The notes under the pieces are model-generated. The model was not told the origin of the DNA, did no database searches, and worked only from the letters and a program-made list of their open reading frames with translations. Positions 43,418 through 46,094 of a DNA stretch of 64,000 nucleotides are shown here, one piece after another (the first letter of the stretch is position 1; every line of letters begins with the position of its first letter). The stretch is from NCBI GenBank assembly GCA_045536245.1, contig JAZSNE010000001.1, forward strand, positions 36,789 through 100,788. Reading direction: 5' to 3'. The DNA is from Acutalibacteraceae bacterium (GTDB taxonomy: Bacteria; Bacillota; Clostridia; Oscillospirales; Acutalibacteraceae). Position numbers and translations under genes: made by a program.

Positions 43418-43453
43418 AAGAAGTAAGCCCCAAGAACTTTCGTCCTTGGGGCT
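43418..43453 (-). repeat. 36-bp copy of the tRNA-Cys terminator (island boundary)
   Basis: AAGAAGTAAGCCCCAAGAACTTTCGTCCTTGGGGCT identical to 45984-46019. Confidence 0.95.
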
Positions 43454-43481
43454 CTGACAGTACGTCTCATTTTAGAACCAT
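43454..43481 (-). repeat. 28-bp tRNA-3'-end-like repeat, copy A
   Basis: Minus strand ATGGTTCTAAAATGAGACGTACTGTCAG; 26/28 identical to 44993-45020. Confidence 0.9.
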
Positions 43482-43499
43482 AGTTTGATAAATTGTCAA

Positions 43500-43817
43500 T
43501 TAAAAAATACCATTATTATATTTTTTCTGCACAAAAAAAATACAGATAAATCCGATTATCAATCCAACAATCAATACAAAAACCGCAATCAATGTATTCT
43601 TTTCCGAACTTCCAAACAGACTTACTATGCCACTGAGCAAAAGTGCCGTTGAAATAATAAACATGGCTTTTCCGAAAGATTTTCCGTATGCGGCTTTATC
43701 GGTAACATTTGTTTGATGATAATCATGAATCAAATTGGTTTTTCCCCGATATATCGCAACACCAAGCACAGCAAAAAGTACCGCTGTCAAAAACATAATT
43801 ATCGAATATGTAATCAT
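43500..43817 (-). CDS. Small 3-TM membrane protein (DUF3784-like)
   Basis: LGVAIYRGKTNLIHDYH pattern; three hydrophobic helices. Confidence 0.7.
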   Translation of the reverse strand: MITYSIIMFLTAVLFAVLGVAIYRGKTNLIHDYHQTNVTDKAAYGKSFGKAMFIISTALLLSGIVSLFGSSEKNTLIAVFVLIVGLIIGFICIFFVQKKYNNGIF

Positions 43818-43852
43818 AATATTACCTCTGTAAATTGGAATTTGTCTGGCTT

Positions 43853-44701
43853 TTAATTTTTGGATAAGTTCAAAAATATTTCTATCTTTTCCGCATCTTT
43901 ATATCCGAGCTGATACAATTTGTTTAATCCGATTTTATTTCTTGTAGCCGTTTTAATCCCAAAACAATCTTCAGGATAAAGTATCAGCACTTTACCTTGT
44001 TTTTCAAGTTCAAGAATTTCATTTATTCTATTATGATATAATGTGTGTGACATTGTTATAGCTTTTGCAATTCGAGGATACTTAAAAAGCAAAGGATTGA
44101 CAAGCCATTTGGGAAAGGCTGATTTCTTATAGCTGATAGGAAGCGTCAAACAAATAATCAGTTTATCGCAACCATCATCAAATGCTTTTTTATACGGAAT
44201 CGGATCAGAAATTCCGCCATCAAAATATCTTCCGTTTTTAAACAAAACAGGTTGACGGGTTGCTATAGGTAATGCACAGCTTGCCTTTAACAAAGTAAAA
44301 TCATCATATTCTAAATCACTTTTATAAAAATATTTCTGTTCAGCAGTCTGTGCATCCGTTACTGCGGCAACAAACTTTTTAGGTGATTTCATTATGGATT
44401 TAAAGTCCAGTGGATTCTTACCGTAACTGTTTGTTATATCGGAATATATATAATCAAGATTTATATACATTCCTTTGTTGCAATAGTTGCCTACACTCAT
44501 ATATTGTTTTTCAAAAGAATAGTCCTCATAAAAGCTTTTTAATCGTCCCCGCTGACCTGCTATGTAAGTAATAAGGTTTGCACTTCCTGCAGAAATGCCC
44601 AAACAATATTCAATATCAATAGAATTATCAAGAAGATAATCGATAATACCGCTTACATAATTTCCTCTCAATCCGCCGCCAACATCCATTATTCCTACCA
44701 T
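43853..44701 (-). CDS. Patatin-like phospholipase
   Basis: DVGGGLRG oxyanion loop, GISAG nucleophile, DGG catalytic Asp; start set to MVGIMD. Confidence 0.9.
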   Translation of the reverse strand: MVGIMDVGGGLRGNYVSGIIDYLLDNSIDIEYCLGISAGSANLITYIAGQRGRLKSFYEDYSFEKQYMSVGNYCNKGMYINLDYIYSDITNSYGKNPLDFKSIMKSPKKFVAAVTDAQTAEQKYFYKSDLEYDDFTLLKASCALPIATRQPVLFKNGRYFDGGISDPIPYKKAFDDGCDKLIICLTLPISYKKSAFPKWLVNPLLFKYPRIAKAITMSHTLYHNRINEILELEKQGKVLILYPEDCFGIKTATRNKIGLNKLYQLGYKDAEKIEIFLNLSKN

Positions 44702-44785
44702 GATGTACCTCATTAAATTCTTATTTATCGAGTTGATTATACCACACACAATGTAAAATTACAATCGGGTGCGGGAGTTCGTAAA

Positions 44786-44955
44786 ATGAAATATGGCTAC
44801 GCCATATGAAATAATCCTGACGGATTGTGAAATTTGATGCTTACGCATCAAGTGAAATGAAATAAATCCACTCACGCCCGCAGGCATTTCACATTGCGAA
44901 GCGATATTTCACTGCCGAAGGCAATTTCACAAATCCCGCAAGGGATTTATTTCGT
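44786..44955. repeat. Structured intergenic element: 4x RTGAAAT and 4x ATTTC(AC/GT) separated by mini-hairpins
   Basis: Unit coordinates and hairpins read directly from the sequence (see finding). Confidence 0.85.
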
Positions 44956-44992
44956 TGAAAAAGAAAAGACAAGTCTTTCGACTTGCTTTTTT

Positions 44993-45020
44993 CTGGCAGT
45001 ACATCTCATTTTAGAACCAT
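44993..45020 (-). repeat. 28-bp tRNA-3'-end-like repeat, copy B
   Basis: Minus strand ATGGTTCTAAAATGAGATGTACTGCCAG, followed by terminator-like AAAAAAGCAAGTC-gaaa-GACTTGTCTTTT. Confidence 0.9.
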
Positions 45021-45047
45021 CAATATATTTCTGTAAATTTTAATTTA

Positions 45048-45464
45048 TTAACAGTAATAAATCATATTCACTTCGTGACAATCATTTTCGTCAACGATAT
45101 CAGTTTCAACAAACCCTATTTTTTCATAAATATGTTTAGCATGTGTGTTACCACAAATATATGTTGTTGTCATTTTTGTCATATTATATGTTTCTTGCAT
45201 AAAACATATAAACTCAACTAAAGTGTTTGTTCCGTAACTTTGATTTTGGTATCTGTAATCTATTGCATAATCCCAAAGGAAGTATGCTCCCTCGTCAAAC
45301 TTTCGCACCATAACAAACCCCACAAGTAAATCATAAGAATAAATATCAAAAGCCATCACGCTTTCGTTTATGCAAGCCTCTTGAATATCTTGCTGTGATG
45401 ACAAGTATTTTTCTTGTTCAGGTAAAACAGAAATTTTCATTGATTTTGATAATTTAAAAAGCAT
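45048..45464 (-). CDS. GNAT acetyltransferase (polyamine acetyltransferase-like)
   Basis: IDYRYQNQSYG, NTHAKHIYEKIGF. Confidence 0.8.
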   Translation of the reverse strand: MLFKLSKSMKISVLPEQEKYLSSQQDIQEACINESVMAFDIYSYDLLVGFVMVRKFDEGAYFLWDYAIDYRYQNQSYGTNTLVEFICFMQETYNMTKMTTTYICGNTHAKHIYEKIGFVETDIVDENDCHEVNMIYYC

Positions 45465-45483
45465 AAATATCCTTCTTTACAAA

Positions 45484-45834
45484 TTACTTCTTTTGATTTG
45501 CTTTAGCGGTATTTAAAGATGAAATTAAAAGTTTCTTAACCTCAATACACATATCAAGAATATCTCTGTTGTCGTAATATCCACTTTCAATAAGAAGTTC
45601 GAGCCAATATTCACTCTCGCTGCACTCTTTTAATGCAATCTGCAATTTAGCAATAAAATCCGCCTTACCGTGACCGTAAAAAGCTTCGCGGATATTTGCA
45701 CCTACACTTGTACCTGAACGGATAAGCTGATTTGTCAGAACAGTTTCCCTTTTACTCTGTTTTACAAAGTTACATACTTTTATTATTTCAAGTGCAAAGG
45801 ATTTTGATTTTGTAATCAATAAACTATCAGCCAC
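45484..45834 (-). CDS. Four-helix-bundle protein (TIGR02436 / IVS-protein family; GTG start)
   Basis: KSKSFA..I, QLIRSGTSVGANIREA, DFIAKLQIALKECSESEYWLELL. Confidence 0.92.
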   Translation of the reverse strand: MADSLLITKSKSFALEIIKVCNFVKQSKRETVLTNQLIRSGTSVGANIREAFYGHGKADFIAKLQIALKECSESEYWLELLIESGYYDNRDILDMCIEVKKLLISSLNTAKANQKK

Positions 45835-45904
45835 AATAATACCGCCTTTCTGAAAATATTATACTACCTCAAAATAAAAATAGCAAGGCAAAGCCTTGCA
45901 GAAA

Positions 45905-45992
45905 TACTTATTCCTTATTACCTATTACTTATTACTTACCAAAGCCCCAAGGAAATTGAAGTAATAGTGAAGAAGTAATAAGTAAGAAGTAA
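45905..45992. repeat. Inverted blocks of 7-bp tandem repeats
   Basis: 5x TACTTAT-like (45905-45939), 18-bp spacer, 5x (G/T)AAGTAA-like (45958-45992). Confidence 0.85.
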
Positions 45993-46020
45993 GCCCCAAG
46001 AACTTTCGTCCTTGGGGCTT
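45984..46020 (-). terminator. tRNA operon terminator hairpin (duplicated at 43418-43453)
   Basis: AAGCCCCAAGGAC-gaaa-GTTCTTGGGGCTT directly after tRNA-Cys CCA. Confidence 0.85.
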
Positions 46021-46094
46021 TGGAGGTGCCACCCGGATTTGAACCGGGGATCAAGGTTTTGCAGACCTATGCCTTACCACTTGGCTATGGCACC
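46021..46094 (-). tRNA. tRNA-Cys(GCA)
   Basis: GGTGCCA...CT-GCA-AA...GGTTCAAATCC...TCCA cloverleaf, 74 nt, encoded CCA. Confidence 0.97.

Follow-up and report, generated by a model that had tools for sequence, protein, structure and literature searches.

How do small, unrelated genes come to stand in series behind a tRNA gene when no recombinase is encoded beside them? The question is raised by a locus in the 64,000-nt stretch of DNA analysed here (the window), which lies on a 129-kb contig (C48) of the 2.5-Mb genome of an uncultured gut Clostridia bacterium. A first-pass annotation had described the locus as a tRNA-Cys gene followed by two gene cassettes, each ending in an imitation of the tRNA end, and had read it as an integron-like platform served by a recombinase acting in trans. 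By the best explanation, the window holds two units from a type of array found throughout the lineage, in which self-expressing gene units are anchored at a tRNA. The recurring box, the two units and the lack of a nearby recombinase survived from the earlier interpretation; the mimicry of tRNA-Cys in particular, the repeated terminator T as a footprint and the plain integron cassette did not.

Each unit in the window closes with GGTTCTAAAATGAGAYGTACTGYCA, here termed box E (25-nt form, GGTTCTAAAATGAGACGTACTGCCA). Scanning one genome per species for the exact pattern retrieved at least 119 stretches with at least 149 copies of E; the counts given below refer to the matches listed. Almost all of these stretches belong to Acutalibacteraceae, Ca. 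Fimenecus or unclassified Clostridia metagenome-assembled genomes (MAGs) from human and animal guts. Within the genus, E (with three mismatches or fewer) was present in 8 of 37 genomes, in one to four copies each, and no listed stretch held more than four. E is always co-oriented with the cargo, on the transcribed strand, and is non-coding, the nearest open reading frame (ORF) stopping upstream at variable offsets and in variable frames, mostly 17–65 nt away. Directly 3′ of E follows an A-run with an intrinsic terminator (134 copies), an INV-type trailer (10 copies) or another sequence (four copies), and the terminator stem varies from copy to copy. For 49 of the 149 listed copies, the nearest upstream tRNA gene on the same strand lay inside the fetched stretch; it was tRNA-Cys in 46 cases, tRNA-Thr in two and tRNA-Ala in one, at a distance of 0.44–7.4 kb. 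Serial stacking at the 3′ ends of tRNA genes is shared with tRNA-integrating islands. The claim that a 25–26-mer closes variable gene units behind tRNA genes was thus borne out across many related genomes: E recurs at the borders of other cassettes, the 2.6 kb of the window is not carried by relatives as one block, and no insertion sequence (IS) or miniature inverted-repeat transposable element (MITE) was identified.

Other functions considered for E were rejected. Translation of E or of the box upstream of it (as KFQFVEL[RW]F and a stop, with seemingly synonymous variation) is ruled out by the variable offsets and frames of the ORF stops and by insertions and deletions in the box. A mini-ORF, ATGGTTCTAAAATGA, has its ATG in a minority of the copies only. 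A promoter, with TAAAAT as the −10 element and box J (see below) as the −35 element, is incompatible with a J-to-E spacing of 10, 17 or 29 nt, which breaks the geometry, and with the terminator immediately after. E is predicted to be unstructured, and an Rfam scan gave no match for it.

In the window, all features of the array lie on the minus strand and are, in the order of transcription, as follows (RBS, ribosome-binding site; UTR, untranslated region).

46021..46094, minus strand: tRNA-Cys(GCA), the anchor of the array, with its CCA end at 46021 as the left junction (ARAGORN; Rfam tRNA, 66.4 bits).
45984..46019, minus strand: trailer terminator T, copy 1, made of an A-run, a 13-bp stem, a GAAA-type loop and ACTTCTT (the T-type family occurs 3′ of tRNA-Cys and of E in other genomes).
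45905..45983, minus strand: AT-rich hairpin with heptad arms, ACTT.../AAGT... (fold z = −6.6).
45847..45904, minus strand: promoter module Q, the palindrome TGCAAGGCTTTGCCTTGC followed by TTGCTA-17-TATAAT (heads units in many loci).
45484..45834, minus strand: first cargo gene of unit 1, a four-helix-bundle protein (23S_rRNA_IVP, PF05635; E = 1.1e-23).
45048..45464, minus strand: second cargo gene of unit 1, a GNAT acetyltransferase (domain match).
45031..45048, minus strand: J-like junction ATAAATTAAAATTTACAG past the GNAT stop codon (compared with the J consensus GAYAAATTCCAATTT).
44993..45018, minus strand: end box E, copy B (GGTTCTAAAATGAGATGTACTGCCA + G), the right end of unit 1 (repeat match).
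44958..44992, minus strand: trailer terminator of unit 2, an A-run, GCAAGTC-GAAA-GACTTGT and a T-run (terminator-like hairpin).
44749..44957, minus strand: mirrored mini-hairpin array, Gut-1 plus its mirrored half (Rfam; fold z = −5.0).
44715..44778, minus strand: promoter module P (..CCCGCACCCGATTGTAA-N-TGTGGTATAAT; TTGTAA-17-TATAAT with TG) and a 5′-UTR with the J-like box CGATAAATAAGAATTT and an RBS.
43853..44701, minus strand: first cargo gene of unit 2, a patatin-like phospholipase with DUF6363 (domain match; a copy that is 89% identical and has the same P module occurs in genome G122).
43832..43846, minus strand: junction J, GACAAATTCCAATTT, at the patatin/DUF3784 boundary, then an RBS and ATG (J comparison).
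43500..43817, minus strand: second cargo gene of unit 2, a DUF3784 small membrane protein (elsewhere a J-bounded single-gene cassette).
43454..43479, minus strand: end box E, copy A (GGTTCTAAAATGAGACGTACTGTCA + G), the right end of unit 2 (repeat match).
43418..43453, minus strand: trailer terminator T, copy 2, identical to copy 1 (exact repeat).

Unit 1 comprises T, the hairpin, Q, the four-helix-bundle and GNAT genes and E (copy B); unit 2 comprises its terminator, the Gut-1 array, P, the patatin gene, J, the DUF3784 gene and E (copy A), and is followed by a trailer of the native type, T. This module order bears out the two gene units proposed earlier, and the rest of the proposed layout (tRNA-Cys, T, repeats, second T) was recovered feature by feature at the coordinates originally given. 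The tRNA-Cys(GCA) gene is the last of a Val-Asp-Phe-Gly-Cys cluster (ARAGORN), and beyond T copy 2 lies the terminator (43385–43411) of a convergent gene (42797–43378). The 36-nt T, AGCCCCAAGGACGAAAGTTCTTGGGGCTTACTTCTT, is indeed present twice (46019–45984 and 43453–43418, 0 mismatches); a wider alignment of 62 nt is 81% identical. Repeats A (43479–43454) and B (45018–44993) fit GGTTCTAAAATGAGAYGTACTGYCAG and are nearly identical, as claimed (27 of 29 positions), with the expected terminator-like hairpin directly 3′ of each. This pattern had 0 matches in 100 shuffles of the window and has no chance expectation there; no further copy was found in the 2.5-Mb genome, even when 7 mismatches were allowed.

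Across the 119 listed loci, the order of modules is constant: the CCA of a tRNA or of E, a trailer, P or Q, one or more genes, J followed by 10, 17 or 29 nt, and E. Every unit has its own conserved promoter module of the sigma-70 type, either P (..GGGACACCCGCACCCGATTGTAA-N-TGTGGTATAAT and a 5′-UTR) or Q (TGCAAGGCTTTGCCTTGC, then TTGCTA-17-TATAAT), and only J-bounded ORFs inside units are promoterless. The copy of P in the window (44778–44715) has counterparts of 80–94% identity in ∼60 loci; that of Q lies at 45904–45847. The 15-nt J (GAYAAATTCCAATTT) is found in the 5′-UTR ahead of the RBS of each ORF and again past each stop codon. The DUF3784 gene is mobile as a single J-bounded ORF, being located behind another gene in the window and in locus L119 and directly behind the P module in loci L134, L143 and L103. 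There is a second and finer level of exchange at J, around single ORFs. In some units (loci L143, L079, L134 and L162), an alternative end element, ATCGGGCTGTTTTGAGTGATTTCAATTTTTGACAAAAACAAGTTGTAAACRCA, follows J in place of E.

The junction after CCA is fixed. Thirteen trailer families stand directly 3′ of both the CCA of tRNA-Cys and the CCA of E, in the same ungapped register, and because the tRNA end and E share only ∼15 scattered bases, this sharing does not stem from homologous crossover. The sequences are best read as indicating that DNA is joined precisely after CCA, with the tRNA and E as equivalent left partners. A block of trailer, Q and cargo, 96% identical over the 200 nt compared, is found immediately behind tRNA-Cys in one locus (L136) and immediately behind E in another (L159). 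Variants inside E track the upstream cargo (73% identical in pairs that have the same cargo but different trailers, versus a baseline of 25%), and the first base after CCA tracks the trailer (93% versus 64%). An inverted copy of exactly positions 1–16 of E follows tRNA-Cys in three loci (L042, L051 and L131) and also E in L131, where a 48-bp palindrome with perfect arms results (3211–3258; GGTTCTAAAATGAGAC, 16 nt, GTCTCACTTTAGAACC), centred between CCA and T. That exactly this segment was inverted argues that E is a discrete unit, reaching from GGTTC to CCA. The 48-bp palindromic form (E, 16-nt spacer, inverted E positions 1–16) is limited to a few loci. Of the two unit ends, the left (trailer) end has a hairpin and E has none. 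Variant small hairpins, GTTCACCCAAAAGTGAAC and GGTCTTAATTTAGACC, hold the position of the inverted arm in other loci.

With the part of a tRNA that extends from the T-loop to CCA, E shares the length of 25 nt and the end letters GGTTC...CCA. It occupies the exact place of the last 25 nt of the tRNA before the same terminators, which upholds the tRNA register relative to T that had been described. When E was compared with the last 25 nt of 38 tRNAs of its own genome, tRNA-Cys matched at 15 positions, the figure reported before, two tRNA-Ser and one tRNA-Lys matched at 14, and the rest at 9–13; tRNA-Cys is only marginally the best of the 38. The positions in common mostly belong to the universal GGTTC..A...CCA. 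Judged by its letters, E mimics tRNA 3′ ends generically and not tRNA-Cys in particular, because other tRNAs score near tRNA-Cys and because the same box closes arrays behind tRNA-Thr and tRNA-Ala. The tRNA-Cys-specific mimicry of the first-pass annotation was, on these grounds, given up.

Trailers are 120–290 nt long and consist of an A-run terminator and a long hairpin module. The module comes in only a few kinds: heptad arms rich in A and T (ACTT../AAGT.. or ATTCATT..) that enclose a loop termed X′, Gut-1-type arrays of mirrored mini-hairpins, and a small hairpin with a “cccgaaaaccc..” terminator. In the window, the loop at 45939–45953 (TCCTTGGGGCTTTGG) is the reverse complement of the junction, i.e., of CCA and the first 12 nt of T. 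A loop X′ complementary to CCA plus 13 nt at 13 or more of 16 positions was found in 30 of 219 trailers, 48–170 nt downstream, compared with 0.3% for mismatched junction controls. As TGG, the complement of CCA, is included in 22 of these 30 loops, the structure extends across the junction. The loop sequence co-varies with the terminator type across genomes, with few mosaic exceptions, and the same trailer build is present 3′ of other tRNA ends, namely, of tRNA-Ala (L046) and of a displaced tRNA-Arg end in the own genome (contig C24). The ACTT/CACT heptad words of the trailer arms also occur directly upstream of tRNA genes, in leader position (L046, 6650–6693; L155, 1530–1571). Direct repeats like T...T, following pairs of tRNA and E, are 36 nt long in the window and 41–178 nt elsewhere. 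Target duplication was rejected as their origin, since their lengths (36–178 nt) and frequency are as expected from trailer families being reused by chance; T...T is thus not a dependable footprint of insertion, the trailer families being interchangeable.

The element between terminator and promoter in unit 2, previously referred to as structured, is the Gut-1 RNA (RF01706; 44881–44957, minus strand; 73.5 bits versus a gathering score of 50). The mirrored half (44749–44838) matches Gut-1 on the plus strand with 46.2 bits, which is under the threshold. Within Gut-1, the linkers between hairpins are GTGAAAT words (the Rfam match has three), and the next hairpins are linked by the complementary ATTTCAC/ATTTCAT, so that the whole element can fold into a ladder with side hairpins. 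The Gut-1 RNA is only one half of this mirrored element. The same mirrored build, with GTGATAT, GATGT or TATATCATCA as linker words, was found in other loci. In the literature, Gut-1 is an orphan among candidate non-coding RNAs, reported from human gut metagenomes only (Weinberg et al, 2010; PMC2864571). The segment in the window belongs to this motif, scoring above its gathering score, but differs in that it is here half of a mirrored array and one alternative trailer between a terminator and a cassette promoter. A contig from human faeces deposited as “Bacteriophage sp.” (MT835590.1, here L231; unverified as phage) carries, at 5990–6500, a terminator, a Gut-1-like mirrored array and a 23S_rRNA_IVP-like four-helix-bundle gene. 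No E, P or J was found in that segment; therefore, the pair of hairpin array and four-helix-bundle gene also travels outside E arrays.

The cargo of 55 delimited units (108 ORFs) was surveyed. The units have a median size of 1.0 kb, and 29 of them contain a single gene. Their ORFs fall into 75 clusters, of which the four-helix-bundle protein is the commonest family; others are GNATs, small membrane proteins, glycoside hydrolases, methyltransferases and an ATPase/RloB-like pair. Units that are 98–99.8% identical occur in genomes of different species with different neighbours. By this comparison, the cargo is evidently hypervariable and recently transferred between species. Decay is also seen: in L016 (genome G122; 960–1010), most of E, down to GGTT, and the whole trailer are deleted (GGTT, then ATGAAAAG, then GGACACCC..), so that the first unit runs directly into the P promoter of a patatin unit with 89% identity to that of the window, and L161 contains an empty P-J-E unit. 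An orthologous empty site was sought as well. DNA searches of 131 further genomes of the genus with the downstream flank yielded no orthologue; the junction between T and flank, which the occupied and the predicted empty site have in common, was absent from the metagenome contigs searched; exact-protein look-ups for Hsp33, DUF3784 and the four-helix-bundle protein gave no matches; and a family-wide search for CCA with TGATG..GAACC, in a sample spanning ∼185 genera, gave chance matches only. A radical-SAM gene in the flank was discarded as a marker of the empty site, as it occurs in only one genome of the genus.

The absence of a nearby recombinase, asserted from the start, was confirmed for the whole 129-kb contig: the genome encodes three tyrosine and six serine recombinases, all on contigs other than C48, with PF00589 matches only on C7, C27 and C21. 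None was found inside E-bearing loci either, bar classical islands upstream of displaced tRNA copies. Such integrase-bearing islands, with exact duplications of the tRNA-Cys 3′ end, exist in the genus (G109 and L044), and the cassette array then stays on the displaced partial tRNA. Exact partial tRNA copies in the own genome show what classical integration looks like here. On C27, a tyrosine integrase lies beside tRNA-Arg(ACG), and at least 24 nt of the 3′ end of this tRNA recur ∼5 kb past the gene; on C24, an array ends in an exact 44-nt tRNA-Arg(CCT) 3′ end, followed by a terminator and an ACTT-arm hairpin, the loop of which matches the terminator. The array of the window has neither an exact direct copy of the tRNA nor an element-encoded integrase. 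As to the layout of the C24 array (17756–19560), tRNA-Ser is followed by a terminator, a P-like promoter, a small membrane gene, J, a hydrolase, J, ∼200 nt of non-coding DNA and the partial tRNA-Arg(CCT). On C32 (63345–66350), a 3-kb islet with one gene, for a 772-aa surface protein, lies behind tRNA-Met and terminates in an exact 46-nt copy of the tRNA-Met 3′ half, from the anticodon loop to CCA; the contig has no match to the tyrosine-integrase family PF00589.

How units would enter and leave can be framed as follows. DNA would be broken and joined exactly past CCA, the tRNA end and E serving as equivalent left half-sites and the folded trailer as the right half; E would be the half-site borne by a unit, in imitation of the tRNA end. 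Catalysis would be site-specific, by an enzyme of a kind we can only infer, and might involve a circular intermediate. The putative enzyme would be encoded elsewhere and act in trans, as the first-pass annotation had supposed; a recombinase linked to E was not found. Because joining would take place at the CCA behind the tRNA, new units would stack there, with the older ones displaced outward. ORFs and trailers would afterwards be reshuffled through recombination at the conserved modules (J, P/Q and trailers). That units are inserted site-specifically after CCA by such an enzyme, with subsequent shuffling of modules, has in our estimate an even chance of being correct. A fuller version is offered tentatively, as something rather short of an even chance: a platform of gut Acutalibacteraceae in which units of ∼1 kb, equipped with promoter and terminator, are placed after the CCA of tRNAs (mostly tRNA-Cys), a host enzyme acting in trans reads E and the folded, junction-pairing trailer, and Gut-1 is a module of the site rather than a free-standing RNA gene.

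Several observations weigh against site-specific joining after CCA. No enzyme was found for it, and none of the recombinase candidates of the genome is linked to E. E itself lacks the internal symmetry or hairpin that is typical of known recombinase core sites, and its likeness to tRNA-Cys barely exceeds that to other tRNAs. The 5′ limits of shared units mostly coincide with the promoter module, 90–200 nt past the previous CCA; a trailer family is common to only 5 of 14 same-unit pairs; and trailers are only partly linked to either neighbouring unit, which means that the CCA junction cannot be the sole point of exchange. E, J and P are conserved, so that homologous crossover inside them would equally yield sharp module edges. 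Finally, the rate of direct repeats is about what is expected if neighbouring trailers share a family by chance.

The strongest alternative is that there is no dedicated recombinase at all. Units would then be exchanged through uptake of relatives' DNA and homologous or homology-facilitated recombination, with the near-identical tRNA cluster, trailers (100–250 nt), P/Q (65–100 nt) and J plus E (∼48 nt) as portable arms; E would be an RNA box of the 3′-UTR (stability, processing or regulator binding) and J a box of the 5′-UTR or of translation. We regard this as possible but doubtful. It would account for E always being on the transcribed strand directly before a terminator, for J in the 5′-UTR/RBS context of every ORF, for breakpoints at several module borders and not after CCA alone, and for direct repeats of 36–178 nt at about the chance rate of reuse of trailer families; the decay products (the truncated E fused to the next promoter in L016 and the empty P-J-E unit in L161) and the lack of an identified enzyme also fit. 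Crossover, however, cannot account for 13 trailer families being attached in one register to both tRNA-Cys and E, and 25 nt are short for RecA-type exchange, yet combinations of E and trailer are heavily reshuffled. A role as RNA leaves unexplained that E agrees with a tRNA 3′ end in length and end letters and that an exact inverted copy of E stands behind tRNA-Cys in three loci. Two further points against it are that E is predicted to be unstructured and that it has no Rfam match.

Alternatively, copies of E could be scars of classical integrase-borne islands that accreted in tandem, as in tycheposons, and lost their integrases, E being a worn partial tRNA. Tyrosine-integrase islands with exact tRNA-Cys 3′ duplications do occur in the genus, with the array on the displaced tRNA (G109 and L044), and the own genome has exact copies, 44–46 nt long, from tRNA-Arg(CCT) and tRNA-Met as well as one of at least 24 nt from tRNA-Arg(ACG); one of these closes an integrase-free 3-kb islet. 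Random decay, on the other hand, would not converge on one near-invariant 25-mer in more than 100 species-level genomes; E matches tRNA-Cys at 15 of 25 positions only and three other tRNAs at 14; the same E is located behind tRNA-Thr and tRNA-Ala; and ∼1-kb units with standard promoters are unlike typical island remnants. This origin is therefore quite unlikely. The least probable proposal casts the units as non-autonomous single-strand transposons of the IS200/IS605 type (palindrome-associated transposable elements or repetitive extragenic palindromic [REP] elements), inserted 3′ of the short target ..CCA by a host Y1 HUH enzyme that reads the adjacent hairpin. Elements of this type have subterminal hairpins at both ends. 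In favour of the proposal, insertion is always 3′ of CCA and beside a hairpin, no target is duplicated except where trailers are reused, pairing between loop and junction is reminiscent of guide pairing, and the genome has two ORFs like REP-associated tyrosine transposases (RAYTs; Y1 HUH) and abundant REP-like hairpin repeats. Against it, E as the would-be right end lacks a subterminal hairpin, the RAYT-like genes are not linked to E, and trailers are not consistently carried with the unit on either side.

The two RAYT-like ORFs are weak Y1_Tnp matches (C38:166316 and C45:3381, 25.9 and 21.9 bits) without linkage to the arrays. An IS110/bridge-RNA system was dropped from consideration, as no DEDD transposase scored above the cut-off in the genome. 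Carriage by phages or plasmids was rejected likewise: none of 2.9 million viral contigs contained E, plasmids gave no match to a 351-nt stretch of E, its trailer and promoter P, and one weak match in a phage collection covers only the Gut-1-like array beside the four-helix-bundle gene.

Site-specific joining after CCA can be set against known systems. With integrons, and with clusters of attC sites lacking integron-integrases (CALIN), the array shares the one-directional order of small, unrelated, exchanged cassettes on a fixed platform, a recurring closing site, a fold that spans the junction and the flavour of the cargo (GNATs, small membrane proteins and proteins of unassigned function); with CALIN, it also shares the lack of an adjacent integrase. 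Unlike in integrons, no intI is found beside these arrays, the platform is a tRNA 3′ end and not attI, and, by comparison without an attC-specific model, no attC build was seen (no R′′/L′′-L′/R′ boxes and no GTTRRRY core). Sites of the attC type are imperfect palindromes of 57–141 bp with R′′ (RYYYAAC) and R′ (GTTRRRY), whereas E is unstructured, has 25 nt and starts with GGTTCTA, which does not fit GTTRRRY; the hairpins next to E, again unlike attC, are intrinsic terminators whose sequences are many and unrelated. Most integron cassettes lack a promoter and are transcribed from Pc, whereas each unit here has its own promoter and then a terminator, and exchange at J boxes adds a level that integrons do not have. 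The integron-like cassette proposed by the first-pass annotation consequently holds as far as a recurring box closes units at a platform; it fails for their own promoters, their own terminators and the additional exchange at J.

In SCCmec and psi-SCC (staphylococcal cassette chromosome elements), Ccr large serine recombinases act in trans at the 3′ end of rlmH. Tandem elements at the 3′ end of a conserved gene, short repeated sites and, for many elements, reliance on a recombinase in trans are common to both systems. The arrays differ in that no Ccr-type enzyme is linked to them, and in their other sites, much smaller units and standard promoter and terminator modules. Attachment sites of large serine recombinases are ∼40–50 bp long, have imperfect inverted half-sites on either side of a central dinucleotide and go with a cognate enzyme; in the arrays, the 48-bp palindrome is confined to a few loci, and none of the six serine recombinases of the genome is linked to E. 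REP sequences and bacterial interspersed mosaic elements (BIMEs) with RAYTs are similar insofar as intergenic hairpin repeats abound in the genome alongside genes for RAYT-like proteins, and insofar as trailers are hairpin modules of limited families; E, by contrast, has no hairpin and no GTAG box, and no link between RAYTs and arrays was found. Dense REP-like hairpin arrays are present on many contigs of the own genome (e.g., C16:13050–26450 and C8:169–9100), with GGGTGTGGGCAACGCCCACCC and ..GTCCCCTACGGTGTT (GTAG on the opposite strand), the hairpins being separated by heptad words of the type TTCACTATTCACT.

Integrative elements that target tRNA genes reportedly fall into sublocation classes (Williams, in 2002, is said to have defined them). 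Among them, the tycheposons of Prochlorococcus are tRNA-targeting elements in tandem arrays, some of which lack an integrase (bioRxiv 10.1101/2020.12.28.424599). Arrays of this type likewise have cargo modules stacked behind a tRNA, separators resembling tRNA 3′ ends, and newer elements that displace older ones. In them, however, an exact tRNA segment of ∼40 nt is duplicated and an integrase is normally carried, whereas E is a constant non-tRNA sequence that shares GGTTC..A...CCA only, insertion is past the CCA of the tRNA and not inside the gene, and units have ∼1 kb.

Full-text literature searches found no description of such arrays, and the box-marked, shuffled units suggest a so far undescribed, integron-like way of collecting genes without a nearby recombinase. 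Even if exchange relied on homology alone, E, J, P and Q would constitute a conserved non-coding “standard expression cassette” not previously described. If capture after CCA is real, the tRNA end and E would provide a short, portable pair of sites with which to seek a new recombinase, the orphan Gut-1 would gain a genomic home and a testable role, and the recurrent hypervariable tRNA-linked islets without integrases would be accounted for. The arrays would then represent a second, independently built solution to the integron problem, that is, a chromosomal platform that collects and expresses small accessory genes, and it would operate in abundant, mostly uncultured gut Clostridia, which would exchange genes between species by it, given that units are 98–99.8% identical.

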